Origin: Escherichia coli
GTDB lineage: Bacteria; Pseudomonadota; Gammaproteobacteria; Enterobacterales; Enterobacteriaceae
Length of the DNA stretch: 64,000 nt
NCBI RefSeq assembly: GCF_003334785.1
Contig: NZ_QOWV01000001.1
Reading direction: 5' to 3' (one strand)
The position numbers were made by a program, and so were the translations under genes. How positions within the stretch are numbered: position 1 is the first letter of the stretch; each line of letters opens with the position of its first letter. Below the pieces are notes generated by a model. That model did no database searches, was not told where the DNA came from, and saw only the letters and a list, made by a program, of their open reading frames with translations. Of the stretch, positions 3,532-48,118 are shown piece by piece.

Positions 3532-3685
3532 TTAGATATATTGATAAGAACAATTCTTATTTATCTGCTCGCCAGGAATTTTCGGAATAAATATGCTTTT
3601 GCATAATTCGATATATAAAGACGGTGTAGAGGAAAAGTAGCGAGAAATTCTGCATGGTTATGCATAACCATGCAGAAATGTAAAT

Positions 3686-22009: not shown

Positions 22010-23867
22010 TGAACTTGATGCCGGTAATGTGCTGGCGGTTGAAAATCTGAATATTGCCTTTATGCAGGACCAGCAGAAAATAGCTGCGGTCCGCAATCTC
22101 TCTTTTAGTCTGCAACGCGGTGAGACGCTGGCAATTGTTGGCGAATCCGGCTCCGGTAAGTCAGTGACTGCGTTGGCATTGATGCGCCTGTTGGAACAGG
22201 CGGGCGGTTTAGTACAGTGCGATAAAATGCTGTTGCAGCGGCGCAGTCGCGAAGTGATTGAACTTAGCGAGCAGAACGCTGCACAAATGCGCCATGTTCG
22301 CGGTGCGGATATGGCGATGATATTTCAGGAGCCGATGACATCGCTGAACCCGGTATTTACTGTGGGTGAACAGATTGCCGAATCAATTCGTCTGCATCAG
22401 AACGCCAGTCGTGAAGAAGCGATGGTCGAGGCGAAGCGGATGCTGGATCAGGTACGCATTCCTGAGGCACAAACCATTCTTTCACGTTATCCGCATCAAC
22501 TCTCTGGCGGGATGCGCCAGCGAGTGATGATTGCGATGGCGCTGTCATGCCGCCCGGCGGTGCTGATTGCCGATGAGCCAACCACCGCGCTGGATGTCAC
22601 TATTCAGGCGCAGATCCTGCAATTAATCAAAGTATTGCAAAAAGAGATGTCGATGGGCGTTATCTTTATCACTCACGATATGGGCGTGGTGGCAGAGATT
22701 GCCGATCGGGTACTGGTGATGTATCAGGGCGAGGCGGTGGAAACGGGTACCGTCGAACAGATTTTTCATGCACCGCAACATCCTTACACCCGTGCGCTGT
22801 TAGCTGCTGTTCCGCAACTTGGTGCGATGAAAGGGTTAGATTATCCCCGACGTTTCCCGTTGATATCGCTTGAACATCCAGCGAAACAGGCCCCCCCCAT
22901 CGAGCAGAAAACGGTGGTGGATGGCGAACCTGTTTTACGAGTGCGTAATCTTGTCACCCGTTTCCCTTTGCGCAGCGGTTTGTTGAATCGCGTAACGCGG
23001 GAAGTGCATGCCGTTGAGAAAGTCAGTTTTGATCTCTGGCCTGGCGAAACGCTATCGCTGGTGGGCGAGTCTGGCAGCGGTAAATCCACTACCGGGCGGG
23101 CGTTGCTGCGCCTGGTCGAATCGCAGGGCGGCGAAATTATCTTTAACGGTCAGCGAATCGATACCTTGTCACCCGGCAAACTTCAGGCATTACGCCGGGA
23201 TATTCAGTTTATTTTTCAGGACCCTTACGCTTCGCTGGACCCACGTCAGACCATCGGTGATTCGATTATCGAACCGCTGCGTGTACACGGTTTATTGCCA
23301 GGTAAAGACGCGGCTGCACGCGTTGCGTGGTTGCTGGAGCGCGTGGGCCTGTTACCTGAACATGCCTGGCGTTACCCGCATGAGTTTTCCGGCGGTCAGC
23401 GCCAGCGCATCTGCATTGCTCGCGCGTTGGCATTGAATCCAAAAGTGATCATTGCCGACGAAGCCGTTTCGGCGCTGGATGTTTCTATTCGCGGGCAGAT
23501 TATCAACTTGTTGCTCGATCTCCAGCGTGATTTCGGCATTGCGTATCTGTTTATCTCCCACGATATGGCGGTGGTAGAGCGGATTAGTCATCGTGTGGCG
23601 GTGATGTATCTCGGGCAAATTGTTGAAATTGGTCCACGGCGCGCGGTCTTCGAAAACCCGCAGCATCCTTATACGCGTAAATTACTGGCGGCAGTTCCGG
23701 TCGCTGAACCGTCCCGACAACGACCGCAGCGTGTACTGCTGTCGGACGATCTTCCCAGCAATATTCATCTGCGTGGCGAAGAGGTGGCAGCCGTCTCGTT
23801 GCAATGCGTCGGGCCGGGGCATTACGTCGCACAACCACAATCAGAATACGCATTCATGCGTAGATAA
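21996..23867 (+). CDS. gsiA: Glutathione ABC importer ATP-binding protein (tandem ABC domains)
   Basis: Two ABC cassettes (GESGSGKS twice, LSGGMRQR and FSGGQRQR); start taken at in-frame TTG (LPHSDELD) overlapping iaaA end, 623 aa. Confidence 0.85.
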
Positions 23868-33217: not shown

Positions 33218-34333
33218 ATGCATCGACAATCCTTTTTCCTTGTGCCCCTTATTTGTCTTTCTTCCGCTCTCTGGGCGGCTCCTGCAACGGTAAATGTCGA
33301 AGTACTGCAAGACAAACTCGACCATCCCTGGGCACTGGCCTTTTTACCCGATAATCACGGTATGTTAATCACTCTGCGCGGCGGCGAGTTGCGTCACTGG
33401 CAAGCAGGAAAAGGATTATCTGCGCCGCTTTCCGGAGTTCCGGACGTTTGGGCGCACGGGCAGGGCGGCCTGCTGGACGTGGTTTTAGCGCCTGATTTTG
33501 CTCAGTCTCGCCGCATCTGGTTAAGTTATTCCGAAGTTGGCGATGATGGCAAAGCCGGAACTGCTGTGGGTTATGGCCGCTTAAGTGATGATCTCTCAAA
33601 AGTGACCGACTTCCGCACCGTCTTTCGCCAGATGCCAAAACTGTCTACCGGCAACCATTTTGGCGGGCGGCTGGTATTCGACGGTAAAGGTTATCTTTTT
33701 ATTGCTCTGGGCGAAAACAATCAGCGCCCGACGGCGCAGGATCTGGATAAATTACAGGGCAAACTGGTGCGTCTGACCGACCAGGGCGAAATCCCGGATG
33801 ATAATCCTTTTATAAAGGAATCCGGTGCGCGCGCCGAGATCTGGTCTTATGGCATTCGTAATCCGCAAGGAATGGCGATGAATCCGTGGAGTAATGCACT
33901 GTGGCTGAATGAACATGGCCCGCGCGGTGGTGATGAAATTAATATCCCGCAAAAAGGCAAAAACTACGGCTGGCCGCTGGCAACCTGGGGAATCAACTAT
34001 TCAGGCTTTAAGATACCGGAAGCGAAAGGGGAGATCGTCGCCGGGACCGAGCAACCTGTTTTTTACTGGAAAGATTCGCCCGCTGTGAGCGGCATGGCCT
34101 TCTATAACAGCGATAAATTCCCCCAGTGGCAGCAAAAATTATTTATTGGCGCGCTGAAAGATAAAGATGTCATTGTGATGAGCGTCAACGGCGACAAAGT
34201 GACAGAAGATGGCCGTATTTTAACGGACAGAGGGCAGCGAATTCGTGATGTTCGCACTGGACCCGACGGTTATTTATACGTTCTCACCGACGAGTCCAGT
34301 GGGGAATTACTTAAAGTTAGCCCACGCAATTAG
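33218..34333 (+). CDS. yliI: Soluble aldose sugar dehydrogenase (PQQ-dependent beta-propeller)
   Basis: 371-aa ORF with signal peptide; synteny with K-12 yliI. Confidence 0.88.
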
Positions 34334-34956
34334 CTAACGGGAATCATCACCACTTTGCGCACTGCGGGGCGTTCAGTGAGTTGCTGATACCAGCGTTGCA
34401 GATTTGGACGCGGTGTCCAGGTCAGGCCAACGTTAAACAAATTGTAGATGAACGGTGCGATAGCGATATCGCCCACACCAAACTCGTCGCCAGAGAACCA
34501 TTTTACTTTTGCCAGTTCCGCATCGAGCAGGGCAAACAGGGCGTCGCACTCTTTGCAACTGGCATCAATGGCGGCCTGATCGCGCTCTTCCGGTGGTGTT
34601 CTGACTAATCCCATCAGGATCCCGCGATGAGCATTACTGAGCGTCTGGTTTGCCCAGTCCATCCATTTTTCCGCTTCCGCACGACGTGCCGGTGAGTCGA
34701 TCCACAGGCGTTTTTGCCCGTACTGTGCCGCCAGATAGCGGACAATGGCGTTTGATTCCCAAAGAATGAGATCACTTTCGTCGTCACGCAACAACGGCAC
34801 CAGCCCGTTAGGGTTCATCGCCAGAAAATCAGCATCGTGATTTATCCCAAACTCACGGCCCGCGAGAATTTGCTCATAAGGTAGTTCCAGTTCTTCGAGC
34901 GTCAGCAATACTTTTTTTACGTTAGTTGAATTATTCCGACCCCACAGCGTAATCAT
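34330..34956 (-). CDS. gstB: Glutathione S-transferase
   Basis: 208-aa product starting [16 protein letters not shown]; GST N/C domains. Confidence 0.9.
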
Positions 34957-35202
34957 ACTCACCCCTTTTCCGACAGGCAGCCACAGGCTGAACAGGACTC
35001 CGATGGTGAAGTAAAGTTAACTTTTAAGCAACAGCTGGCAAAAAAATGACACCAGAAGCAGCGAAGCGGCAGGATATTGCATAAACTTTAAAAACTTTAC
35101 CAACTTACGGTTTCTTTAAGTTTGTGTGTGCGTTATTAATCACCAAACTTATCATACGGCGATATAACGTATTTTTTTTGAATGGATACTCGGGTGGCAT
35201 TT

Positions 35203-36405
35203 ATGACGCAATACTCCTCTCTCCTTCGTGGTCTTGCAGCGGGTTCTGCATTTTTATTCCTTTTTGCCCCAACGGCATTCGCGGCGGAACAAACCGTTGA
35301 AGCGCCGAGCGTGGATGCGCGTGCATGGATTTTAATGGATTACGCCAGCGGTAAAGTGCTGGCAGAAGGCAATGCGGATGAGAAACTGGATCCCGCGAGC
35401 CTGACTAAAATCATGACCAGCTATGTGGTTGGGCAGGCGCTTAAGGCCGATAAGATTAAACTCACCGATATGGTGACGGTCGGTAAAGATGCCTGGGCGA
35501 CGGGAAATCCGGCACTGCGTGGTTCATCGGTAATGTTCCTCAAACCGGGCGATCAGGTTTCGGTGGCAGACTTGAACAAAGGTGTGATTATCCAGTCCGG
35601 TAATGACGCCTGTATTGCGCTGGCTGATTACGTTGCCGGGAGCCAGGAGTCATTTATTGGTCTGATGAATGGTTATGCCAAAAAACTGGGTCTGACCAAC
35701 ACTACCTTCCAGACGGTGCACGGCCTGGATGCGCCGGGGCAGTTCAGCACCGCGCGCGATATGGCATTGCTGGGTAAAGCATTGATCCACGATGTGCCGG
35801 AAGAGTACGCCATTCATAAAGAGAAAGAGTTCACCTTCAACAAAATTCGTCAGCCTAACCGTAACCGTCTGCTGTGGAGCAGCAATCTGAATGTTGATGG
35901 CATGAAGACAGGAACCACGGCAGGCGCGGGATATAATCTGGTTGCTTCGGCTACCCAGGGCGATATGCGTTTAATCTCCGTAGTGTTGGGGGCGAAAACC
36001 GACCGTATCCGTTTTAATGAGTCTGAGAAATTATTGACCTGGGGTTTCCGCTTCTTTGAAACCGTGACGCCAATTAAACCTGATGCCACCTTTGTGACTC
36101 AGCGCGTCTGGTTTGGTGATAAGAGCGAAGTGAATCTCGGGGCAGGTGAAGCGGGCTCAGTGACCATACCGCGTGGGCAGCTGAAAAACCTGAAAGCGAG
36201 TTATACGTTAACGGAACCGCAGCTTACCGCACCGCTGAAAAAAGGTCAGGTTGTCGGGACCATTGATTTCCAGCTTAACGGTAAATCCATTGAGCAGCGT
36301 CCGCTGATCGTGATGGAAAATGTGGAAGAGGGCGGATTCTTTGGTCGGGTGTGGGATTTCGTGATGATGAAATTCCATCAGTGGTTCGGCAGCTGGTTCT
36401 CTTAA
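35203..36405 (+). CDS. dacC: D-alanyl-D-alanine carboxypeptidase (PBP6)
   Basis: 400-aa product with signal peptide, SxxK (SLTK) and SGN motifs. Confidence 0.92.
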
Positions 36406-36410
36406 TCTTC

Positions 36411-36446
36411 TGATAACCGGATGGCGCGAAACGTCATCCGGTTATA
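36411..36446. terminator. Bidirectional terminator between dacC and deoR
   Basis: 11-bp perfect inverted repeat ATAACCGGATG / CATCCGGTTAT with an 11-nt loop. Confidence 0.65.
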
Positions 36447-36451
36447 CGTCA

Positions 36452-37210
36452 TTAATACATCAACTTAATGCGCTGCGTCTGCGCGTACTTCACATACTCA
36501 TCTTCCGGGCAACAATCGCTCACCACAATATCAAAGCGTTTCAGGTCACCCATGCGCGCCGGACGCACCTTGCCAAATTTACTGTGGTCGACAACCAGCA
36601 CATGCTTTTGCGCCATCGACATGGCCCAGTGTTTTACCGGCAACTCTTCAAGATTAAAACAGGTAGCGCCTTTACTGACATGCACGCCCGCCGCAGAATA
36701 AAAAGCGATATCCGGGCAAAAATTATTCAGCGTTTGCTGAAAATCGATGGGTTTGAAAATGGCGTTGCTGGCGTGAAATTCACCACCGCAAAGAAACGCG
36801 CGGCAATGGGGTTTCTCTTTCAGCGCCAGAAAGGTATTTAGCGAATAACAAACGGCGGTAAAAGGGATTTCATTATCAATCGCTTCAATAATCCACGGCG
36901 TGGTGGTGCCACAGTCAAAAAAGAGGGTCTGATCGGGTTCTACCAGCGTCGCAGCCAGTTTTGCCGCCCGGCGTTTTTCTTCCACCAGGCGGGATTTTTG
37001 ATCGCTTAACAGGTAATGGCTGGCACTGCGCGGTTCCAGAACAATATAGCCGCCGAGCAAAACGACGGGCGCACTGTGGTTGTTCAGATCGCGACGAATC
37101 GTCATCTCCGAAACCCCAAGCAGGGCGGCGGCGTCTTTAAGATGTAACTTATCGCTGCGTTTTAATTCTTGCAGCAGCTGCCCGATACGCTCTTCGCGAC
37201 GTGTTTCCAT
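36452..37210 (-). CDS. deoR: Deoxyribose operon repressor, DeoR family
   Basis: 252-aa ORF with N-terminal HTH and DeoR C-terminal sugar-phosphate-binding domain. Confidence 0.95.
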   Translation of the reverse strand: METRREERIGQLLQELKRSDKLHLKDAAALLGVSEMTIRRDLNNHSAPVVLLGGYIVLEPRSASHYLLSDQKSRLVEEKRRAAKLAATLVEPDQTLFFDCGTTTPWIIEAIDNEIPFTAVCYSLNTFLALKEKPHCRAFLCGGEFHASNAIFKPIDFQQTLNNFCPDIAFYSAAGVHVSKGATCFNLEELPVKHWAMSMAQKHVLVVDHSKFGKVRPARMGDLKRFDIVVSDCCPEDEYVKYAQTQRIKLMY

Positions 37211-37267
37211 AATCCCTCTGAATAGTTATTGAAGCGAGCCGCTCAATACTACACTTTTTAGCAGAGA

Positions 37268-37864
37268 TCAGTCACGCACCCAGCCTTTGCGGATCGGTAA
37301 TGCAAAACAGACGCGATACCACGATTGCAGACGTTGATAGAGTTTATGCCCCATCGCTTGCCAGATAATCTGGGCACTAAGGCAGCCAATCATACCTGCC
37401 AGCAATCCACCGAGCATATCCAGCGGCCAGTGGACGCCAAGATAAACGCGCGACCAGGCAATGACGACGGCCAGCACCATTAAAAGTGAGCCGGACCACA
37501 GGCGATGCCAGCATAAAAATGCCAGTGCAAAGGTGAAAATCACCGTACCGTGATCGCTTGGGAATGAGTCATCCGCCGCATGATGCAGGAAGTTATAGCC
37601 GATATTTTCGACAAAGGGTCGGTCGTGCGGAAAAAGATGTCCCATCGTCCAGGACACAAACAGGCTGACCGCCAGCGCGATAGCGATTTTTATCACCAGT
37701 TGCCGTTGTGCTGTAAGCCCCCACAACCAAAGTACCACGGCCAGCAACGGCACCACGGTAATCAAATCTTTAGCAATAAAAATCGCCAACGAGATCATCC
37801 ACGGAGCCGAGTCTGGCGTCGCGTTAATAAGAGAGAATAGAGAGAGATTCAAATTTTCCAGCAT
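37268..37864 (-). CDS. ybjG: Undecaprenyl-diphosphate phosphatase, PAP2 family
   Basis: 198-aa membrane product starting MLENLNLSLFSL. Confidence 0.85.
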   Translation of the reverse strand: MLENLNLSLFSLINATPDSAPWMISLAIFIAKDLITVVPLLAVVLWLWGLTAQRQLVIKIAIALAVSLFVSWTMGHLFPHDRPFVENIGYNFLHHAADDSFPSDHGTVIFTFALAFLCWHRLWSGSLLMVLAVVIAWSRVYLGVHWPLDMLGGLLAGMIGCLSAQIIWQAMGHKLYQRLQSWYRVCFALPIRKGWVRD

Positions 37865-38148
37865 AACTTCCCGACGCAAAGTGATTAAAAGGGAGCCAAT
37901 ACAGGCAAGTCGTTGAGAATAAAGTGCAGGTTAAACTGGGTAAAGCGGCATCGTCTTATTTCCCTCAAGCGGCCTGTTTACGGTGGGTGATTGTAACGGG
38001 CATAGGTTAAATAAAACTTAAAGAAAGCGTAGCTATACTCGTAATAATGTAAGAATGTGCTTAACCGTGGTTTCAGCTACAAAATTCGCTTTCTCGTTAG
38101 CTGCGCTTTTATTAAACTCTGCGCGATTATTATTGGCGAAGAAATTGC

Positions 38149-39381
38149 ATGCAAAATAAATTAGCTTCCGGTGCCAGGCTTGGACGTCAGGCGTTACTTT
38201 TCCCTCTCTGTCTGGTGCTTTACGAATTTTCAACCTATATCGGCAACGATATGATTCAACCCGGTATGTTGGCCGTGGTGGAACAATATCAGGCGGGCAT
38301 TGATTGGGTTCCTACTTCGATGACCGCGTATCTGGCGGGCGGGATGTTTTTACAATGGCTGCTGGGGCCGCTGTCGGATCGTATTGGTCGCCGTCCGGTG
38401 ATGCTGGCGGGAGTGGTGTGGTTTATCGTCACCTGTCTGGCAATATTGCTGGCGCAAAACATTGAACAATTCACCCTGTTGCGCTTCTTGCAGGGCATAA
38501 GCCTCTGTTTCATTGGCGCTGTGGGATACGCCGCAATTCAGGAATCCTTCGAAGAGGCGGTTTGTATCAAGATCACCGCGCTGATGGCGAACGTGGCGCT
38601 GATTGCTCCGCTACTTGGTCCGCTGGTGGGCGCGGCGTGGATCCATGTGCTGCCCTGGGAGGGGATGTTTGTTTTGTTTGCCGCATTGGCAGCGATCTCC
38701 TTTTTCGGTCTGCAACGAGCCATGCCTGAAACCGCCACGCGTATAGGCGAGAAACTGTCACTGAAAGAACTCGGTCGTGACTATAAGCTGGTGCTGAAGA
38801 ACGGCCGCTTTGTGGCGGGGGCGCTGGCGCTGGGATTCGTTAGTCTGCCGTTGCTGGCGTGGATCGCCCAGTCGCCGATTATCATCATTACCGGCGAGCA
38901 GTTGAGCAGCTATGAATATGGCTTGCTGCAAGTGCCTATTTTCGGGGCGTTAATTGCGGGTAACTTGCTGTTAGCGCGTCTGACCTCGCGCCGCACCGTA
39001 CGTTCGCTGATTATTATGGGCGGCTGGCCGATTATGATTGGTCTATTGGTCGCTGCTGCGGCAACGGTTATCTCATCGCACGCGTATTTATGGATGACTG
39101 CCGGGTTAAGTATTTATGCTTTCGGTATTGGTCTGGCGAATGCGGGACTGGTGCGATTAACCCTGTTTGCCAGCGATATGAGTAAAGGTACGGTTTCTGC
39201 CGCGATGGGAATGCTGCAAATGCTGATCTTTACCGTTGGTATTGAAATCAGCAAACATGCCTGGCTGAACGGGGGCAACGGACTGTTTAATCTCTTCAAC
39301 CTTGTCAACGGAATTTTGTGGCTGTCGCTGATGGTTATCTTTTTAAAAGATAAACAGATGGGAAATTCTCACGAAGGGTAA
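38149..39381 (+). CDS. mdfA: Multidrug efflux MFS transporter
   Basis: 410-aa 12-TM MFS ORF; synteny with K-12 mdfA/cmr. Confidence 0.95.
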
Positions 39382-39385
39382 AAAA

Positions 39386-39416
39386 ATGCCTGACTGCTTT
39401 GTGCGATCAGGCATTC
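39386..39416. terminator. Bidirectional terminator between mdfA and ybjH
   Basis: Inverted repeat AATGCCTGA / TCAGGCATT following an A-run. Confidence 0.6.
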
Positions 39417-39421
39417 TCGAA

Positions 39422-39706
39422 TTAATGGTGATGGTCGTCAATCTGGTGTTCGATAACCATCCCTTCACCTACGCTGGCAAGATGGCGAACATAAGGATGC
39501 GGGCGGTATGCCGGAGCTGGCGCAGGAGCCACATAGACGGTTTGCGGCACAGTCGCGACGCTGACCGCTTGTGGAACGCTGACTGAATCAGGAACCACAA
39601 CCACTTTGTATCCACTCGGCACATCGACGGTGACACTTTGCGCCATCGCCACACCAGTAAAGCCCATTAAAAGCGCGCCCAACAGTAGACAATTTTTCAT
39701 AATCAT
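39422..39706 (-). CDS. ybjH: Small secreted protein of unknown function
   Basis: 94-aa ORF with signal peptide MIMKNCLLLGALLMGFTGVAMA. Confidence 0.8.
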   Translation of the reverse strand: MIMKNCLLLGALLMGFTGVAMAQSVTVDVPSGYKVVVVPDSVSVPQAVSVATVPQTVYVAPAPAPAYRPHPYVRHLASVGEGMVIEHQIDDHHH

Positions 39707-39791
39707 TTCGCCTGAAATAATGCAGCGGGTTAATTTCCGCGAATTATGCAGCCTTCATTCAGGCATTGTGTTGCCGGGCGTGCTGCCGGTT

Positions 39792-40607
39792 TTATTGGTC
39801 AAATGGCGCTTCGTGTTTAAGAACTTTATCGATCACATCCAGTACGCCTTCACGGTTATTGGAGCCTGCGCGGTATTTTGCCGCTGCGACGACCGCGCTA
39901 CCGGCATTTTCCATTGCAAAACTAAAGCCTGCCTGACGCAGCATCTCAATATCGTTACCGCCATCGCCAAAGACCACCACTTCGCTGTCGTCTATTCCCC
40001 ATAATTTCTGCAGTTGGCGAAGGCCATTGGCTTTATGTACGCCGGGGATAATCAGATCGATGCTGCCGTTGCCGGTGTGGACCGACACCATAATATCGCC
40101 GATGGCCTCATGTAATGCTTTTTGTACTTGTGGAATCAGTTCATCGGAAAGATTCAGGCCAAACTTAAAGAAGATATCCTCTAAGTTGTCAAAGTTATCG
40201 ACGTATTCCAGACGGTGATAATACATTTCCGCCACCGTTTTCATGGCATCGTCATATTTTTTGAGTGTATAGGCACTATTTTTTCCGCAGGCAATAATTT
40301 CCACTTCCGGGCGCGTCAGCAAATGTTCCACGACAGTAGCAAACGCATCCTTCGATAGCTCGCCATTAAAAACATCTTTGCCTTCGCTCACTACCCAGCC
40401 GCCGTTTTCAGCCACAAAGGCAATTTCATTAGCAATTTCAGGGAAGAAAGAGATCAACTGATAATATTGATTCCCGCTGGCGACTACAAAGCGAATTCCT
40501 TGTGCTTTCATTTGCTGATACTGAGCCATAAACCGCTCACGGTTATAGGTTTTTTGATCGCTTAAGAAAGTACCATCCATGTCTACCGCAATTAATTTAA
40601 TGCTCAT
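39792..40607 (-). CDS. ybjI: HAD-superfamily phosphatase (Cof-like), paralogue of ybiV
   Basis: 271-aa product with DMDGT and GDGGND motifs. Confidence 0.9.
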   Translation of the reverse strand: MSIKLIAVDMDGTFLSDQKTYNRERFMAQYQQMKAQGIRFVVASGNQYYQLISFFPEIANEIAFVAENGGWVVSEGKDVFNGELSKDAFATVVEHLLTRPEVEIIACGKNSAYTLKKYDDAMKTVAEMYYHRLEYVDNFDNLEDIFFKFGLNLSDELIPQVQKALHEAIGDIMVSVHTGNGSIDLIIPGVHKANGLRQLQKLWGIDDSEVVVFGDGGNDIEMLRQAGFSFAMENAGSAVVAAAKYRAGSNNREGVLDVIDKVLKHEAPFDQ

Positions 40608-41815
40608 CAACTATTCTCCATCGCCGTCTGCGTTTTGGTATCGGGTTTGGCGACGGCTTTCGCGACAATAGCCGCGAGAATAACCAGCGCCAGTACAACC
40701 AGCATTGCACTACGTAATCCATAATGTTCGCCGAGATAGCCCAGCAGCGGCGGCCCGACGAGGAAAGCCAGATAACCGGTCGTTGCTACCACACTGACGC
40801 GGGTTGGTGCATCGGGGCCGGTATCGCTGGCGGCAGAAATGGTCAGCGGGAAGCCCAGCGAGGCACCCAGTCCCCAGAGTACAACAGACACCCCAGCGAC
40901 CCAGGCGCTATCGACAAAAATAATCAGCCCAATACCCAACGCCCCCATTAGTGCACTGGCCCGAACCACGGCAACGCGACTGTAACGGTCGATGAACCAA
41001 CCGCCGGTGAAGCGTCCAACGGTCATCCCCAGGGTAAAACCGGCATAAATCAGCGAGCCGGAAGTAGGGCTAAAACCGTGACCGTCAACCATTAATAAGG
41101 GTAACCAGTCGTTGGCAGAACCTTCGGCAAAGGCCATCGCCAGCACCACAACACCTATCAGCAGCAACTGGATATCGCGATAAAAAGGTACGCCTTTTTC
41201 GCCATGCTGGGTGCCATCGGCAGCATTTTTGCCCGTACCGTCAGGGATTGCCTGAATGGCGATATAAATAGGTGCGATACCTACCAGCGCCGCCAATAAA
41301 ATGTGCACCGTTGCCGGAACGCCAAAGGCCGTCAGTGCCATCCCGACACCTGCGCCTGCCAGCGTGCCCAGGCTATAAAAACCGTGCATCATCGGCAAAA
41401 CCGTCTTATTCATTTCTCGCTCAACGGCAGCACCTTCAACGTTTATCGCCACTTCCGCAGAACCAAAACTTGCCCCAAAGACGCCGAGACCAACGGCAAA
41501 GAGCAGGGGCGATGTCAGCCAGAGTGCCAGACTTAATATCATCATCCCGATCAATGCGCAGGACATCGTGACCAGGATGACATTACGTGTCCCAAAGCGT
41601 TTCACTAACCACGCCGAGCAGAGAATACCGCTCATCGAACCGATCGACAGACCAAAGAGAACACCGCCCATTTCAGCGATCGAGACAGAGAGAATATCGC
41701 GGATAGCAGGCGTACGGGTTGCCCAGGACGCCATTAACAGGCCTGGCAAAAAGAAGAACATAAACAGCGCCCAGGTTCGGCGTTTCAATGCATTACGTGA
41801 AGAATTTACGGTCAT
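40607..41815 (-). CDS. ybjJ: MFS transporter
   Basis: 402-aa polytopic ORF. Confidence 0.9.
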
Positions 41816-41898
41816 AGATCACGTCAAAATAAGAAGAGGGAAGACAACATTAGCAAGGTTGTGTACATTTGTACACAATTGCAGAGAGAGGAAATGAC

Positions 41899-42435
41899 AT
41901 GCGTCGCGCTAACGATCCGCAACGGCGAGAAAAAATTATCCAGGCCACGCTGGAGGCGGTGAAACTTTACGGAATACATGCTGTTACGCACCGCAAAATT
42001 GCTACCCTTGCCGGGGTACCGTTGGGATCGATGACCTACTATTTTTCAGGAATTGATGAGTTGTTACTGGAGGCGTTCAGCAGTTTTACTGAGATCATGT
42101 CCCGGCAATATCAGGCATTTTTTAGCGATGTTAGTGATGCTCCGGGCGCATGCCAGGCTATCACCGATATGATCTACAGCTCACAGGTTGCAACGCCGGA
42201 TAACATGGAGCTGATGTACCAGCTCTACGCGCTGGCTAGCCGAAAACCGCTATTAAAAACGGTAATGCAAAACTGGATGCAGCGCAGTCAGCAAACGCTC
42301 GAACAATGGTTTGAACCCGGAACCGCCCGCGCGCTTGATGCGTTTATTGAGGGGATGACGCTGCATTTTGTCACCGACCGTAAGCCGCTATCGCGCGAGG
42401 AGATTTTGAGGATGGTTGAGAGGGTTGCAGGGTAG
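41899..42435 (+). CDS. rcdA: TetR-family transcriptional regulator (regulator of csgD)
   Basis: 178-aa product starting [15 protein letters not shown] with N-terminal TetR HTH; the prophage begins about 17 bp downstream of its stop. Confidence 0.85.
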
Positions 42436-42451
42436 TAGATAAGTTTTAGAT

Positions 42452-42465
42452 AACAAAAAACCCAT
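42452..42465. repeat. Candidate attL core (left copy of 14-bp direct repeat)
   Basis: AACAAAAAACCCAT is identical to 54039-54052. Confidence 0.6.
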
Positions 42466-42484
42466 TTATGTAAACGGGTTAATG

Positions 42485-42521
42485 AAAACAATAAGTTAGG
42501 TTAAAAACAATAAGTTAGGTT
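42485..42521. repeat. Tandem 18-bp direct repeat (2 copies) next to the int 3' end; candidate integrase arm-type sites
   Basis: AAAACAATAAGTTAGGTT at 42485-42502 and 42504-42521, followed by TGGTGGT-CAG-TGGTGGT. Confidence 0.5.
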
Positions 42522-42539
42522 GGTGGTCAGTGGTGGTTA

Positions 42540-43592
42540 TTACGGGGTAATGCCAACCGCTGCCGCCACTTTGTCGCCACTTGGCAGCGTTGCCAGAGGA
42601 TTGAAACGGAGCGCCGTTTCTAGATGATCCGGTGCCAGATGTGCGTAACGCATAGTCATTTTTATATCGTGGTGTCCGAGAATTTTTTGTAAGGCCAGAA
42701 TGTTTCCACCCGACATCATGAAGTGCGCCGCAAACGTATGGCGCAGAACGTGTGTGAGTTGACCGCGAGGGAGCACGATAGACGTTTTTTCCATCACGGA
42801 TAAAAATTGAAAATAGCAGTCTGTGAAGAAATTGAACCCATCAAGCGCCATGATCTCTTCGTAAAGCTCTTTACTGATAGGGATGCTTCTGTTTTTCTTC
42901 CCCTTCGTTCTGACAAAGGTAATTCGGTATTTGGTCACCTGTGAGCGGGTAAGATTTACGGCTTCACGCCAGCGTGCGCCTGTGCTTAAGCATATCTTAA
43001 CTACCAGTGCCAGAATTGGGTCCTGACGTTTGCAATCAGCCAGCAATTCAACAATCTGCTCATGGGTAAGCCATGCCATCTCTTTTTCTGCGATGGTGAA
43101 TTTTCGCATGTTCTCCAGTGGGTTCGGATACGACCATTCGCCCAGACGGGATAGTTCGCTAAAAACACTACTTAGATAGCTTTGCTCCAGGTTAATGGTG
43201 ACCGGGCTTGCTCCTTTCTTCCATTTCTCGCTGAAGTAGATCTCGCCTGTCAGGCGTTTATCTCGATAGTGGGCAAACATTTTAGAGGTGAGATCGGTTG
43301 CAAGAGGATTGCCCAGAGCGTCAACCATCAACAGCAATTTGTCATAGACATGCTGCCCAGCTGTCAGAGATTTACCATGTAGTTTGAACCATAGCTCAAC
43401 CACGTCTTTCAGTGTTCGACGATCCACTGATTCACCCAGCCAGGGCTTTGCTTCGGTTTCTTCCATCGTGTGGCGCTCAAAAGCCAGTGCTTCGCCTTTG
43501 GTGGCGAATTGTTTACGCACACGACGCCCACTTCGTCCGGCGGGGTAACATTCGCAAAGCCATTTCCCTGTGGTTAGTTTTCGTACTGCCAT
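42540..43592 (-). CDS. int: Phage integrase, tyrosine recombinase (P2/186 Int-like)
   Basis: 350-aa ORF with catalytic signature STGARWREA, HVLRHTFAAHF and MRYAHL. Confidence 0.92.
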   Translation of the reverse strand: MAVRKLTTGKWLCECYPAGRSGRRVRKQFATKGEALAFERHTMEETEAKPWLGESVDRRTLKDVVELWFKLHGKSLTAGQHVYDKLLLMVDALGNPLATDLTSKMFAHYRDKRLTGEIYFSEKWKKGASPVTINLEQSYLSSVFSELSRLGEWSYPNPLENMRKFTIAEKEMAWLTHEQIVELLADCKRQDPILALVVKICLSTGARWREAVNLTRSQVTKYRITFVRTKGKKNRSIPISKELYEEIMALDGFNFFTDCYFQFLSVMEKTSIVLPRGQLTHVLRHTFAAHFMMSGGNILALQKILGHHDIKMTMRYAHLAPDHLETALRFNPLATLPSGDKVAAAVGITP

Positions 43593-43674
43593 AAAAAGCC
43601 CTCATATCAGAGGGCTAAATTTAACTGTATATGTAACCAGTAATCAATGTGTGATTACTATGAAACATACATTG

Positions 43675-45351
43675 CTAAGCAACATGTAGTTCATCGTTGG
43701 CGGAAGTGGCTGCTTTGCGCTCCTGCTCAATAGCTAGAGACTCTCTATATTCTTTCGCCTCTGCAAACATTGTCCAGTGGGCGTTGATGTTCATGTCTTC
43801 AATAACTGATTTGATTTCTTTTAAATTTACGTTAAAAAACTCTTTTCGTGAGTTAATTTTATTGACCTGCTTTTCGTTGAAAACTTTATGCAGATGGTTT
43901 TCTAATGATGGTGCATCATCACTATAAATCATCGCATGAACATCGAACGAAAAAGGAACACTAGCATCTCCGAGTTCACGAACACGATCAAGTGGTTCAA
44001 GGCGGCGTGTCATTCCAATTTTATATACATCTTCGCCAAATGAACCAATATTACTAATGATATAGACGTGGCCTGATCTGGTTTGTTGAGCCATAGAAAT
44101 AGCTCGTTGATTTTTAGCTTCAGCTTCTTCATATTTTAACTGTAGTTCAGCTATTTTTTGCTCTAAAGCTAAGCGTTGTTCTTCATTTGCAAGCATAAGT
44201 TCTTTCGTTGCTTTATTTATAGCTTGCTGAATAGCTTTTTCTTCTTTTTCAGCTTCTTTTATCGCTTTTTCATATTCTCTACGAGCTCTTTCCTCTTCAC
44301 GAAGCTGTTCTTTAATCCTTCTTTGCTCTTCTTTTTCTTCGAGCATAATTTCATTAACTGCTACACCCCATTTTAGCTCGTTGAGTCTTGCCTGAAGATA
44401 GATGTCACTTATTTTTGCGGACCTAAAGGCAGAGCCATTGTAATTTACTAGTTGAAATGCATCTTTTATTTCTTGGGAAAGTTTTCCAAAATTGTTGTGT
44501 TTGACTTTTGATAAAATACTGTCAACTCTTCCATTGAAGGCATCCAAAACAAAGTTTATGGCAGTATTACGCCTGTTTTGCTCAACATAATCACACGAAG
44601 CAGCTTTATTAGTTTTTATTAATGATTTGGTTAACTCTCTGGCTTTTTGTAATTCCTTGCCTGCATCTGTAAATTCATAATTTTCTGCCAGCTCATCAAG
44701 TACACTACGGTTAGGGATGATCCATTCATCACCATAACCTTCAATTTTATTTTTCATTGATTTTGCAACTGCTTCATATTTTTCTGCAAACTCTTTAGCT
44801 TCATATGCTGAACCAGCAATCTCCTTTGCTCTTTCTTCTGCATCAGAAATAATTTTTACTGCATTGTCATTAGCATTTGAGATTAGCTCATTTGCTTTAT
44901 TATTAGCATTATCAAGACGTTCTTTGGCTTTCAGGCGTGCATCGCGAGCGTCTTTGGTGATTGCTATAGCTTCGCTATTAGCGTTGCTTATTGTCATCTG
45001 AGCTTGATAATTTGCTTCGTTTACTGTTTTAGCCGCCTTAATTTGGGCTTCATCTATTTTTTGCTTGGCTATTGAGTCCGCATTTTTTATCTTATTCTCT
45101 GCATCCATTACTGCGCTGTGCAATTCTTCGTATTGCCACAATGGTGCTGCTCGCCCTTCAAGCTCTGATAATTCTCGTACGGTCTGTGCTAGTTTTTCTT
45201 GATTTTCAATCAGTTGGTTAGAAAGGGCTATGTTGTTAGCTGTCAGGTTATCTATAGCCGCTTTGTGTTTTTTACTTTGTTTAAATAATATTACAGCTAG
45301 AACAGGGGCGAGAAATGCTAATAAGAGTATAACGATGGCAAATGAATTCAT
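43675..45351 (-). CDS. Prophage accessory protein: N-terminal TM helix, long coiled coils, C-terminal GIY-YIG-like (T5orf172-type) domain; candidate anti-phage gene
   Basis: 558-aa ORF between int and the CI-like gene, co-oriented with both; AT-rich; hydrophobic N-terminus FAIVILLLAFLAPVLAVILF; K/E/A-rich heptad regions; C-terminal GHVYIISN...YKIGMTRR...E...N motif block. Confidence 0.8.
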   Translation of the reverse strand: MNSFAIVILLLAFLAPVLAVILFKQSKKHKAAIDNLTANNIALSNQLIENQEKLAQTVRELSELEGRAAPLWQYEELHSAVMDAENKIKNADSIAKQKIDEAQIKAAKTVNEANYQAQMTISNANSEAIAITKDARDARLKAKERLDNANNKANELISNANDNAVKIISDAEERAKEIAGSAYEAKEFAEKYEAVAKSMKNKIEGYGDEWIIPNRSVLDELAENYEFTDAGKELQKARELTKSLIKTNKAASCDYVEQNRRNTAINFVLDAFNGRVDSILSKVKHNNFGKLSQEIKDAFQLVNYNGSAFRSAKISDIYLQARLNELKWGVAVNEIMLEEKEEQRRIKEQLREEERARREYEKAIKEAEKEEKAIQQAINKATKELMLANEEQRLALEQKIAELQLKYEEAEAKNQRAISMAQQTRSGHVYIISNIGSFGEDVYKIGMTRRLEPLDRVRELGDASVPFSFDVHAMIYSDDAPSLENHLHKVFNEKQVNKINSRKEFFNVNLKEIKSVIEDMNINAHWTMFAEAKEYRESLAIEQERKAATSANDELHVA

Positions 45352-45371
45352 TTTAAAATCCTTTTACTATA

Positions 45372-45968
45372 TTAATTCGAGACTATTGTACTTCTTATAC
45401 AAGCAACCACTTCAATATCAGAAAATGCACATTCAAAGCTATTCTCTGCTGTTGTAATTTTAATCATTCCTTTAGGAAGCCTTGTGATTTTTCGAATGGA
45501 ATAGGTTCCGTCGATATTGATTAACCAGTTTCCATCAAGTACTTCAGAAAATTTTTGATCACAAATGTATGTGACGAGTCCATCCTGAACAACAATTGGT
45601 GATGAAAGGTTTGCAGGAAGAAATGATGAATCGAAGACATATGAACCGTCTTCAATCATTTTGCCTGCGGCAAGGCGAAACTTAACAAGCTCTTCTGTAG
45701 CTGCTGTCAGCGAGCTTTGCTTAAGGCCTTGTCCGGTAGTTAACCATTTGAGGGAGGTTCCTGTTTCAAGAGCACATTGGATTATCCAGTCAGCAGGAAA
45801 TGTATCCCGCAAATACCTGTTCGCTAGTGTGCTTTTTGATACTTCCAAGTGATCAGCTAAAGCCTGTCGTGTCGTAAAGCCATAGGCTTCGACTAATCGC
45901 TCAATCGCAGCCTTACCACCTTTATTGGGATTTATTTTGATCTCACTTGGGTACTTTGATGTTGACAT
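45372..45968 (-). CDS. cI: Phage immunity repressor (186 CI-like)
   Basis: 198-aa ORF with HTH region FTTRQALADHLEVSKSTLANRYL, transcribed divergently from the apl/cII-like genes. Confidence 0.8.
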   Translation of the reverse strand: MSTSKYPSEIKINPNKGGKAAIERLVEAYGFTTRQALADHLEVSKSTLANRYLRDTFPADWIIQCALETGTSLKWLTTGQGLKQSSLTAATEELVKFRLAAGKMIEDGSYVFDSSFLPANLSSPIVVQDGLVTYICDQKFSEVLDGNWLINIDGTYSIRKITRLPKGMIKITTAENSFECAFSDIEVVACIRSTIVSN

Positions 45969-46013
45969 ATCTCTTTTGCGATCCTAGTATCAGTTTTGTA
46001 CCCAATTGGGTAC
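45962..46013 (+). promoter_or_regulatory. Candidate rightward early promoter (pR-like) with palindromic operator
   Basis: -35 TTGACA (45962-45967), 17-bp spacer, -10 TAGTAT (45985-45990), then perfect 16-bp palindrome GTACCCAATTGGGTAC (45998-46013). Confidence 0.5.
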
Positions 46014-46063
46014 TTGTCACGATTACTACAGGCTCACCACAAGCCAATAGGAGATGTTGCATC

Positions 46064-46285
46064 ATGACCCCTAACATTTCAATAACTCTGAATACGCCAC
46101 ACGTCACAATCGAGCGTTATAGCGAACTTACTGGTCTTTCAATCGACACAATCAACGATATGTTGGCGGATGGTCGCATTCCTCGGCATCGTCTTCGTAA
46201 AGACAAGAAAAGAGAAAAGGTAATGATCAACCTTGCTGCTCTTACCGTTGATGCACTTACTGATTGCAATGTTGTATTCAACTAG
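46064..46285 (+). CDS. Small DNA-binding switch protein (186 Apl / P2 Cox-like)
   Basis: 73-aa [35 protein letters not shown] with HTH-like segment, first gene of the rightward operon; GGAGA RBS. Confidence 0.65.
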
Positions 46286-46317
46286 TTCCATTTTGGGATA
46301 CATCAGAGGTGTCGACC

Positions 46318-46827
46318 ATGTTTGATTACCAAGTTTCCAAACATCCACATTTTGATGAAGCCTGTCGAGCATTCGCACTGCGCCACAATCTGGTGCAACT
46401 GGCAGAACGTGCGGGCATGAATGTGCAGATTCTGCGGAACAAGCTGAACCCAGCTCAACCTCATTTATTAACCGCACCAGAAATCTGGCTGCTTACCGAT
46501 CTGACTGAAGATTCAACGTTGGTAGATGGTTTTCTGGCACAGATTCATTGTCTGCCATGTGTACCGATTAATGAGGTAGCAAAAGAGAAACTGCCGCATT
46601 ACGTCATGAGCGCAACTGCAGAGATCGGGCGTGTTGCAGCAGGTGCGGTATCTGGTGATGTAAAAACTAGTGCCGGTCGTCGTGATGCTATCAGCAGCAT
46701 TAACTCTGTAACACGACTGATGGCGCTGGCTGCTGTTTCATTGCAAGCCCGTTTACAGGCTAATCCTGCGATGGCGAGTGCAGTTGATACCATGACTGGC
46801 CTTGGTGCTTCATTCGGTTTGCTGTGA
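46318..46827 (+). CDS. cII: Phage regulatory protein CII (186 CII-like)
   Basis: 169-aa product [45 protein letters not shown]... resembling 186 CII as I recall it; GAGGTG RBS 7 nt upstream. Confidence 0.8.
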
Positions 46828-46834
46828 GGTGTTT

Positions 46835-47131
46835 ATGCTGACGAAAGAACCATCATTTGCATCGCTGCTGGTAAAACAAAGCCCGGCAATGCACTACGGT
46901 CACGGCTGGATCACGGGTGAGGATGGAAAACGCTGGCATCCATGTCATTCACAAGATGAATTGCTGTCTGAATTGACCACGAGGAAACGGAGAAAGTCCA
47001 AATGTATGCGGCAGAAAGTGAAGTGGTTTATCAGTTTCGTTACAGAGGGGAGAGTTATTCAGTACCTGAAGATGATTTGCTCTGTTGCTATCCGTCATTG
47101 TCGGGCGATGGCAGTTACTTTTTCACGTTAA
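46835..47131 (+). CDS. Hypothetical small early protein; 3' end uncertain
   Basis: ATG with GAGGTG RBS; the last 130 nt overlap the next ORF in another frame and look less protein-like. Confidence 0.45.
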   Translation: MLTKEPSFASLLVKQSPAMHYGHGWITGEDGKRWHPCHSQDELLSELTTRKRRKSKCMRQKVKWFISFVTEGRVIQYLKMICSVAIRHCRAMAVTFSR

Positions 47132-47226
47132 AGGATGGGACGTTTTTACGGGGAGAGCAGGTTAAAGAGACGATACGAAAAAATGTATCTCCTCTTGAGC
47201 GTTACCGTAAGAACAAAGAACGATAG
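47002..47226 (+). CDS. Hypothetical small early protein
   Basis: 74-aa ORF MYAAESEVVYQFRYRGESYSVPEDD... with GGAGAAAG RBS. Confidence 0.55.
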   Translation: MYAAESEVVYQFRYRGESYSVPEDDLLCCYPSLSGDGSYFFTLKDGTFLRGEQVKETIRKNVSPLERYRKNKER

Positions 47227-47248
47227 CTGCGTTTGGGGGATATGAAGT

Positions 47249-47590
47249 ATGGCAATTAATGGCGCTGCAGCAACTGTTCCATTAAGCCCCGGTGAACGCC
47301 TGAATGGACTTAATCACATTGCGGAGTTAAGGGCGAAAGTTTTTGGCCTGAATATTGAGTCAGAGCTTGAGCGGTTTATTAAAGATATGCGTGATCCACG
47401 GGATATCAATAATGAACAAAATAAACGGGCACTGGCTGCCATATTCTTTATGGCAAAAATTCCAGCTGAACGTCATAGCATCAGCATTAATGAGCTGACC
47501 ACTGACGAAAAGCGGGAGCTGATTAAAGCAATGAATCATTTTCGTGCAGTGGTGAGCTTATTTCCCAGACGGCTAACCATGCCGAATTAA
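47249..47590 (+). CDS. Hypothetical phage early protein
   Basis: 113-aa ORF with purine-rich RBS, co-directional in the early operon. Confidence 0.6.
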   Translation: MAINGAAATVPLSPGERLNGLNHIAELRAKVFGLNIESELERFIKDMRDPRDINNEQNKRALAAIFFMAKIPAERHSISINELTTDEKRELIKAMNHFRAVVSLFPRRLTMPN

Positions 47591-47657
47591 CCAACTAATG
47601 AAATTAATGGCGTAAACCCGCCGGGCATCCCTTTATCTAAATTCAGGAGAATTGATT

Positions 47658-47891
47658 ATGCGTAATATTGAAACCCTCACGACTAAAACCGGACCGGATG
47701 ACGCAGGGCTTAATATTTTACTGACAGAGGCTCGTCTGGAAGAACGCCGGGCAAGGGCTGAAGCAATGGCTGCTCGCCTTGATAGCCTGGCGTGTCATAT
47801 CTCATCCCGCCAGCTAAACCACGTGGAAGCGGCAGAACTGCTGCGCGTGACTGCTGAAGCAATCCAGAACGAAGCGCAGGAGATCCACTAA
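47658..47891 (+). CDS. Hypothetical phage early protein (P2 orf80/81-like position)
   Basis: 77-aa ORF from ATG with AGGAGA RBS (the track's TTG start at 47652 is rejected); stop overlaps next start. Confidence 0.6.
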   Translation: MRNIETLTTKTGPDDAGLNILLTEARLEERRARAEAMAARLDSLACHISSRQLNHVEAAELLRVTAEAIQNEAQEIH

Positions 47892-48118
47892 TGGCTGATG
47901 CAATGGATCTCGTACAGCAGCGCGTTGAAGAAGAACGCCAGCGCCATATCCGTGCAGCCCGTGCCAAATCACCGGGCGTGTCACGCGTACTTTGCATTGA
48001 ATGTGAAGCGCCAATTCCGCCAGCACGACGCCGCGCCATTCCGGGAGTGCAGCTTTGCATTACCTGTCAGGAAATCGCAGAACTGAAAGGCAAACATTAC
48101 AACGGAGGTGCTGTATGA
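47891..48118 (+). CDS. TraR/DksA-family C4 zinc-finger protein
   Basis: 75-aa ORF with CIECEAPIP...CITCQ four-cysteine motif; translationally coupled to neighbours. Confidence 0.75.
   Translation: MADAMDLVQQRVEEERQRHIRAARAKSPGVSRVLCIECEAPIPPARRRAIPGVQLCITCQEIAELKGKHYNGGAV

Follow-up and report, generated by a model that had tools for sequence, protein, structure and literature searches.

The CI repressor of phage 186 forms a 14-mer wheel that wraps DNA, and the distal 186 operators FL and FR, about 300 bp away, loop to pR. The positions of the experimentally defined sites of this switch, as taken from the GenBank annotation of the 186 record, place the cI start at 23011, the three CI sites at 23011-23067, the −35 and −10 hexamers of pR at 23026-31 and 23049-54, the Apl sites at 23056-23123, the −10 and −35 hexamers of the leftward promoter pL at 23131-36 and 23154-59, and the apl ATG at 23141. 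The two promoters are convergent, with pR interfering with pL and CI activating pL by silencing pR (PMC6593788), and the three operators at pR are set two helical turns apart (PMC3675496). In 186, Apl represses pR and pL alike by binding to the DNA that separates them, and in P2-like phages generally the early promoters face each other at a distance of 40-60 bp (PMC7498355).

Among other described switches, the Pe-Pc switch of P2 resembles the locus considered here in its early promoters, which are face-to-face as those here are predicted to be, and in having a Cox-type excisionase and regulator as the first lytic gene (PMC7498355). The P2 C protein, however, is a small, unrelated repressor acting on two direct repeats (PMC1904268), whereas here a repressor of the 186 CI family is found with an inverted repeat; the present switch is thus not of the P2 C type. 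Lambda OR shares with the design proposed below a repressor dyad that occludes the lytic promoter and a repressor that stimulates its own synthesis. The lambda promoters PR and PRM are back-to-back, however, and activation is by direct polymerase contact, in contrast to the convergent design of 186, and presumably of this locus, in which activation comes from relief of transcriptional interference (PMC6593788).

The locus lies in a 64-kb stretch of Escherichia coli DNA (the window), and its genes place it beside 186. The gene cI (45372-45968, minus strand, its start codon read as CAT at 45966-68) encodes a protein of 198 aa in which Pfam recognises Phage_CI_repr (PF07022, residues 20-83, E 1e-31) and Phage_CI_C (PF16452, residues 96-190, E 6e-27). 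Its best PDB match is 186 CI (2FJR; phmmer, E 7e-27), with 32% identity over 170 aa, and its C-terminal domain is homologous to 2FKD, which was also matched. These comparisons make cI a full-length gene for a 186-family CI repressor, one presumably heteroimmune to 186 itself. On the plus strand, the apl/cox-like gene (46064-46285) encodes a 73-aa excisionase and regulator (phrog_575, Cox-like excisionase and repressor, E 1e-31) with weak similarity to 186 Apl. It is followed by cII, the activator of lysogeny establishment (46318-46827, plus strand; phrog_101), whose product shares 70% identity with 186 CII along its full 169 aa, and then by fil, a DksA-like zinc-finger gene, dam and the replication gene A. 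Leftward lies the integrase gene (42540-43592, minus strand; phrog_1) and, between it and cI, a PD-Lambda-1 defence gene (43675-45351, minus strand; PADLOC, E 2e-120), which sets this locus apart from 186. Taken together, the ORFs, the PHROG assignments and the 186 annotation give the 186 gene order, int-cI leftward and apl(cox)-cII-fil rightward, and the two switches have in common a two-domain CI, homologous cII and fil, and a strong rightward promoter, predicted in our case, that abuts the cI start. An earlier note, made from the sequence alone, had recognised the immunity switch of a 186-like prophage in this DNA, and the CI domains, the CII identity and the gene order bear this out. We consider it likely, for the explanation as a whole and with the CI operator included, that a prophage of the phage-186 type (Peduoviridae) has its early control region, pR-pL, in this interval.

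The prophage is a remnant, reduced from the phage-186 type, and is situated between rcdA (ybjK) and a 561-aa ORF (54197-55882) which we take to be ybjL. Positions 34203-50270 of the window match, at 99.94% identity, the E. coli prophage region that was deposited under the name phage vB_EcoM-813R9, with no difference in the switch. The ORF at 48969-52073 joins residues 1-434 of gpA to a C-terminal portion of the tape-measure protein, and beyond this fusion just U, D and an ogr-like gene are left. The element had been described as a remnant lacking structural genes; a remnant it is, but the tape-measure C-terminus, U, D and the ogr-like gene have been kept. A tblastn search of the window gave no tum-like sequence, and tum is present in the intact relative vB_EcoM-813R9. 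Its loss is attributable to the deletion from gpA to the tape-measure gene, and is thus a property of this copy and not of the phage type. In 186, SOS induction proceeds through the LexA-controlled antirepressor Tum, and with tum deleted the remnant should be non-inducible by this route. An apparently intact set of repressor gene, putative operator and promoter has survived in the remnant, as had been proposed.

The rightward promoter pR has the −35 hexamer TTGACA at 45962-45967 (plus strand), overlapping the cI start codon, followed by a 17-bp spacer (45968-84) and the −10 hexamer TAGTAT at 45985-45990, from whose position transcription is predicted to start near 45997. It is the sole sigma-70-like match, at 10/12 positions, on either strand between 45300 and 46900, and this single match in 1.6 kb is fewer than chance would give (shuffle mean 3.1). 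Conservation was followed in 37 related loci from Escherichia, Klebsiella, Raoultella, Silvania and Xenorhabdus, 34 of which retain TTGACA or a one-base variant, the exact 17-bp spacing and TAnTnT; the −35 is TTGACA itself in 32 of these 34 promoter-bearing loci. The arrangement differs from that of 186, where the pR −35 lies 15 bp from the cI ATG instead of overlapping it, the intergenic region measures 129 bp compared with the 95 bp that separate cI from the apl ATG (46064) here, and the gap between the −10 hexamers of pR and pL is 76 bp compared with 63 bp to the pL candidate described below.

Seven base pairs after the pR −10 is the perfect 16-bp palindrome GTACCCAATTGGGTAC (45998-46013), at about +2 to +17 of pR, which we propose as the main CI operator and refer to as O_R. 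The succession given in the earlier note, TTGACA, 17 bp, TAGTAT and then the palindrome, holds on direct reading of the coordinates. The palindrome is unique in the window even when three mismatches are allowed, and the exact sequence was found in no paper in the searchable literature. Perfect 16-bp palindromes as such are not rare, however, the window holding two where 0.9 are expected per shuffle, and palindrome statistics were therefore dropped as evidence of function. Since the palindrome and the single promoter match are each unremarkable by chance, it is context and conservation that make the case for function. Three observations do go beyond chance: all three exact copies of TTGGGTAC in the 64 kb fall within 67 bp, the palindrome is placed inside the 95-bp intergenic region, and palindrome and promoter are both kept in relatives. 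A reading of the palindrome as a terminator was rejected, there being no T-run after it on either strand; the only terminator-like match between 45300 and 46900 is at 45657-45629, inside cI.

The dyad, in the form GTnCCCAw|TTGGGnAC, is kept in seven loci whose CI has the identical recognition helix VSKSTLANRY (E. coli, Escherichia sp., Klebsiella phage KP12, K. michiganensis, Raoultella, Silvania and an Enterobacteriaceae genome). Positions G1, T2, C4, C5 and C6, and G11, G12, G13, A15 and C16, are invariant among them; 4 of the 16 positions vary in these relatives, mainly the symmetric pair 3/14 and the centre. The palindrome had been called perfect, which it is in this DNA, but its counterparts in same-helix relatives are the imperfect GTCCCCATTTGGGTAC, GTCCCCGTTTGGGTAC or GTTCCCATTTGGGGAC, and on this comparison the perfect symmetry is a peculiarity of one E. 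coli lineage. The near-identical recognition helix of the Xenorhabdus CIs, VSKSTMANRY, goes with a different dyad, GTTCTC-N5-GAGATC, set within a longer inverted repeat, and the recognition helix alone thus does not explain specificity.

These comparisons also bear on whether the palindrome has any present function. In the same-helix relatives the intergenic region is 92-94% identical, compared with 76-84% for the flanking genes, and the palindrome together with the 7 bp to its left varies more than any other part of the intergenic region, which is otherwise close to invariant. A site less conserved than its surroundings could be a product of chance, about one perfect 16-bp palindrome being expected per 64 kb, or a relic, with pR repressed through other, unrecognised sites; the flanking pR operators of 186 are likewise not obvious dyads. 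Against this, dyad symmetry survives even where the flanking genes have diverged to the extent just given, a second copy is found 59 bp away, and the site co-segregates with the cI allele. We therefore regard a palindrome devoid of function as very unlikely.

Which protein, then, would recognise the dyad? Informative here are six loci in which Apl is identical at 74/74 positions but CI is a different protein, of 290-313 aa and with two N-terminal HTH domains in tandem: CFT073, three other E. coli chromosomes and the Klebsiella phages 4LV2017 and ST11-VIM1phi8.4. The dyad is gone in all six, and TGTGAA/TGTGAT motifs are found instead at the same three places, namely the 5' end of cI, the pR spacer and directly after the −10. 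CFT073, 4LV2017 and ST11-VIM1phi8.4 have the pR hexamers at the same positions as here and are near-identical to the window from 46014 rightward, but they have no GTACCC dyad, and GTCACG lies 7-8 bp closer to the −10. In the different-CI loci as a whole, likeness to the window resumes at 46014-46018. To the right of this junction, the apl-linked half of the switch, GTCACGATTA...GGAGATGTTGCATC (46014-46063), holds the apl ribosome site, the pL −10 and the candidate Apl repeats, and is shared, at 92-95% identity, with loci whose cI is different. The absence of the dyad where Apl is the same and CI is not implies that it travels with the cI-pR cassette and not with the apl module, which argues against an Apl site and fits a CI operator over the pR start.

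The position of the palindrome would by itself suit Apl, since it is placed between the predicted starts of pR and pL, as are the Apl sites of 186 (PMC7498355). Sites of Apl/Cox proteins are, however, short direct repeats one helical turn apart that recur at att (PMC7498355), whereas the element here is an inverted repeat, and neither a copy of the palindrome nor a half-site is found at the att arm. With six loci encoding the identical Apl protein and lacking the palindrome, binding by an Apl/Cox-like protein is extremely unlikely to be its function. Candidate Apl sites are the repeats TGTCAC (46015), TACTAC (46024) and CACCAC (46035), of which the middle one is not conserved, and the att arm nearer int holds two copies of TGGTGGT, at 42521 and 42531, 10 bp from each other. 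The assignment of Apl sites from this comparison is weak.

We conclude that, most likely, the palindrome serves CI as an operator lying across the start of pR. The earlier note had read it as a repressor operator over the start of the lytic promoter, and its segregation with the cI allele is what that reading would lead one to expect. The comparison with 186 operators that had been suggested shows both a common core and clear differences. The CI-binding region of 186 pR contains a dyad, TCTCTCAATTGGGAGA, that shares with the palindrome a CAATTGGG core and an xxxCxC half-site shape, and at 186 pB the operator lies directly downstream of the −10, as the palindrome does here. The half-site sequences are different, however, TCTC(T/C)C or ATTCAC in 186 compared with GTACCC here, and so is the place of the main dyad, which is in the −35/−10 spacer in 186 and at +2 to +17 here.

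The same location allows a role in RNA. Given a pR start near 45997, the lytic transcript would begin with the hairpin GUACCC-AAUU-GGGUAC (6-bp stem, 4-nt loop), and a palindrome acting mainly at this level might, as a 5'-terminal hairpin of the lytic mRNA, counter 5'-end-dependent decay, or might serve in the cI leader transcribed from pL. A hairpin is predicted in both the rightward and the leftward transcript, but every palindrome folds, and this prediction does not discriminate. In Xenorhabdus an inverted repeat with 15-bp arms occupies the same place, and 7/15 pairs are changed on both sides, a covariation score reached by 0/500 shuffles. Its strongest-covarying pairs (columns 8/40 and 11/37), however, are upstream of the expected pR start, its wobble cells are about equal for the two strands, and only 81% of cells pair. 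Among closer relatives, loci L009-L012 have U-G at position 3/14, which still pairs in the rightward RNA, whereas KP12 and locus L008 have a C-U mismatch in the stem. Moreover, 186 is without such a hairpin at +1, there is no Rfam match between 45300 and 46900, and the loss of the dyad upon a swap of cI is more simply explained by a protein site. An RNA-level function is thus unlikely, and we keep to the palindrome as a CI operator in what follows.

Where is the promoter for cI? Because the pR −35 overlaps the cI start codon, it must lie to the right. The candidate pL has its −10, CAACAT, at 46059-46054 (minus strand), 5-10 bp upstream of the apl ATG, and its −35, TTGAAA, at 46082-46077 (minus strand), in apl codons 5-7 and at +14 to +19 of the apl ATG. 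These offsets (−10 to −5 and +14 to +19) are identical to those of the annotated 186 pL. The candidate matches the consensus poorly, at 8/12 positions, which is the joint best leftward score, and is the only conserved leftward candidate: its −10 is kept in 37/37 loci, a count partly forced by the anchor used, and its −35 is found at the exact 17-bp spacing in 36/37, to which the coding sequence may contribute. Both hexamers overlap the apl ribosome site or coding sequence, a possible cause of their conservation. In 186 the pL- mutation disrupts the apl ribosome site (PMC6593788), and this fits the placement of the pL candidate at the apl start. The cI promoter thus probably faces pR, with a leftward start near 46047 and about 50 bp between the two start sites, which are somewhat further apart in 186. 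The locus had been described as a divergent switch; the genes do diverge, but we read the promoters as face-to-face, with the pL candidate in the register of 186 pL.

A second leftward candidate, GTGACA (46020-46015), 17 bp and AAAACT (45997-45992), would instead set the promoters back-to-back, and the palindrome would then be spacer from which bound CI directly represses or activates its own promoter. It equals the preferred candidate in score (8/12), and the palindrome plus one base makes up its exact 17-bp spacer, much as the 186 dyad fills the pR spacer. This candidate was rejected, however, as its −10 is not conserved in close relatives. It becomes AAAATT, GAAACT, AGAACT or AAAACA in loci with the same CI, losing the critical A2 or T6; the start would fall inside the pR −10 and leave a leader of at most 20 nt; and the alternative candidate is the one positionally identical to 186 pL. 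A back-to-back arrangement has, in our judgement, very little likelihood, and the mechanism below assumes convergent promoters.

By analogy with 186, we envisage that pR drives apl-cII-fil and the replication genes rightward, and that the 198-aa CI, presumably as a dimer-based oligomer, would bind the 16-bp dyad O_R and keep RNA polymerase off pR. Facing pR from the apl start, some 50 bp away, pL would then be released: with pR silenced, transcriptional interference would be relieved, and transcription of cI, the PD-Lambda-1 gene and int would increase, as in 186. That these three genes are co-transcribed from pL as a lysogenic operon is probable from the gene order and the cI-int operon of 186.

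A further CI site may lie upstream, in the first codons of cI. The earlier note had reported a half-site-like sequence in this part of the gene. The extra TTGGGTAC is real, but it lies at 45947-45954, not at 45949-45956, and it does not stand alone. The palindrome region recurs here in direct orientation over 22 nt (45935-56 TTTTGATCTCACTTGGGTACTT and 45994-46015 TTTTGTACCCAATTGGGTACTT, 59 bp apart), and the extra TTGGGTAC makes up the right half of this copy. It thus belongs to a degenerate full copy, GATCTCACTTGGGTAC (GATCTC-ACTT-GGGTAC; 45939-45954, cI codons 5-10), whose centre is 59 bp to the left of that of O_R. This copy, O_L, scores 11/14 against the dyad pattern, second best in the region, and is kept in relatives, but within coding sequence; we propose it as an auxiliary site that probably aids CI binding. 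More speculatively, a weak site, O_M, may also contribute. It is the imperfect dyad TATCTC-TTTT-GCGATC (45968-45983) in the pR spacer, 29 bp from O_L and 30 bp from O_R, centre to centre, and locus L045, whose CI is different, has a similar spacer.

The predicted centres, at 45946.5, 45975.5 and 46005.5, are thus spaced by 29 and 30 bp, about three helical turns, in contrast to 186, where three operators at two-turn spacing fall within 56 bp; the two-turn spacing of 186 is not seen here, which, on these predicted sites, is a difference of variant. The pattern WWCNC-N4-GNGWW, which was fitted after O_L, O_M and O_R had been seen, gives three consecutive matches at 45940, 45969 and 45999, among 23 in 64 kb.

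A candidate for a distal site is GTTCCATTTTGGGATAC (46285-46301), at the apl stop codon, in a position like that of FR in 186, where FR overlaps pE, and probably overlapping the −10 of the CII-dependent promoter pE. It forms a conserved island, TAGTTCCATTTTGRGA, amid diverged flanks, but is a weak match to the dyad pattern (10/14, a score reached at 36 places in the window) and is also found in loci with a different CI. Its 10-mer TTCCATTTTG has one more exact copy in the window and one more in the complete KP12 genome, and in both cases the second copy is at the −35 region of the promoter of the ogr-like late activator. In 186, CI sites are found at pB, the matching place, and the parallel with the FR and pB sites of 186 is suggestive. 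No convincing candidate was found for a counterpart of FL: GTTTCCATCAAGTAC (45528-42), the strongest one inside cI, was set aside as it matches at only 9/13 positions and is 470 bp away. Elsewhere in the window, a motif match at 54085-54101 (12/14), next to a chromosomal hairpin where the prophage ends on the right, was taken as chance, and TTCGCAATGGAGAA (53656-69), upstream of the ogr-like gene, fits a degenerate dyad but was rejected as not conserved in KP12.

These candidates suggest a tentative and in our view doubtful extension, in which this class of CI may use three 16-bp dyads, built from the half-sites GTACCC and GATCTC/TATCTC/GATCGC and placed 29-30 bp apart across pR (about three turns, compared with two in 186), with further sites of the TTCCATTTTG type at the pE/FR position and at the ogr-like promoter. 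If it were true, natural relatives of 186 CI would wrap or loop DNA in a different register, with the cI-operator cassette being swapped as a unit at a fixed junction just to the right of the dyad. It would also bear on the DNA wrap of the CI wheel, predicted to take about 147 bp and observed to take about 180 bp, a standing discrepancy (PMC3675496). Unless such a three-turn spacing proves real, the locus adds nothing conceptually new to the 186 paradigm.

The switch is a previously undescribed member of the thoroughly studied 186 family, and a candidate operator, a promoter pair and a module boundary can now be assigned to an immunity class annotated so far as "repressor CI / hypothetical protein". 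The proposal that the remnant confers immunity to 186-like superinfecting phages is not upheld as far as 186 is concerned. With CI only 32% identical to that of 186 and operators that differ in sequence, any immunity is expected to act against homoimmune phages only, such as vB_EcoM-813R9 or KP12. We thus predict that the remnant could exclude these and not 186. The position of the adjacent PD-Lambda-1 gene suggests that this defence gene, too, is expressed from the repressor promoter. Of 5,426 complete E. coli genomes, at least 182 carry this immunity class, and it is found also in Klebsiella phages.

The remnant is marked by a single open reading frame (48969-52073, plus strand) in which residues 1-434 of the replication protein gpA continue in-frame into the tail tape-measure protein, of which the C-terminal part is kept. 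The junction, near 50270, is the mark of a deletion that removed tum, the head and lysis genes and most of the tail genes. When 5,426 complete E. coli genomes were compared with a 301-bp probe spanning it, each matched just one half of the probe and the junction itself occurred in none; the two halves have about 4 bp in common at the join. Incompleteness is also seen in a related switch locus deposited as a phage genome, vB_EcoM-813R9 (ON470620.1; L041). This record is a prophage region flanked by E. coli chromosome, with artP...ybjT on one side and rcdA...mdfA on the other; it lacks the genes beyond gpH, and the prophage is therefore itself incomplete.

The cI gene and its operators appear to have been exchanged as a cassette, with a fixed junction at 46014-46018 as the swap point. 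In six related loci (L004, L005 and L044-L047, including E. coli CFT073 at 912-913 kb and the Klebsiella phages 4LV2017 and ST11-VIM1phi8.4), the 186-family CI is a protein of 290-313 aa with two tandem N-terminal HTH domains, and TGTGAA-type repeats replace the palindrome, while the neighbouring Apl is identical to that of the window. In Xenorhabdus and Photorhabdus prophages (L013-L039), positions 1-41 after the pR -10 hold a long inverted repeat with 15-bp arms and a 5-nt loop. Its core, GnTCT(C/T)-N5-GAGAnC, is invariant and its outer arms show covariation between species; the repeat may serve as a pair of operators or may form a hairpin in RNA or DNA.

The window has two exact copies of the 10-mer TTCCATTTTG, one at the apl/cII junction (46286-46295, plus) and one around the -35 of the ogr-like promoter (53682-53691, minus), with a one-mismatch copy at 53640-53649 (minus); the genome of the Klebsiella phage relative KP12 also holds exactly two copies, at the same two places. 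In coliphage 186 the CI sites FR and pB lie at these two places.

Between cI and int lies a 558-aa gene (43675-45351, minus) with a PADLOC match (E 2e-120) to PD-Lambda-1, a family of anti-phage defence; RefSeq names it as a DUF4041 or SNIPE-associated protein. It is probably carried on the repressor (pL) transcript. In the int-proximal att arm (42485-42537), a tandem 18-bp repeat, AAAACAATAAGTTAGGTT, with copies at 42485 and 42504, and two TGGTGGT motifs 10 bp apart, at 42521 and 42531, are likely to be Int arm-type and Apl/Cox sites.

Of two GATC sites, one falls within the proposed O_L (45939-45942) and the other at the end of the pR spacer, just before the -10 (45980-45983). The prophage itself encodes a Dam-type methylase (dam, 48115-48972), and methylation might have an influence on the switch. 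Apart from the one at 45998-46013, the window contains a single perfect palindrome of 16 bp, TGGTTATGCATAACCA, at 3655-3670.
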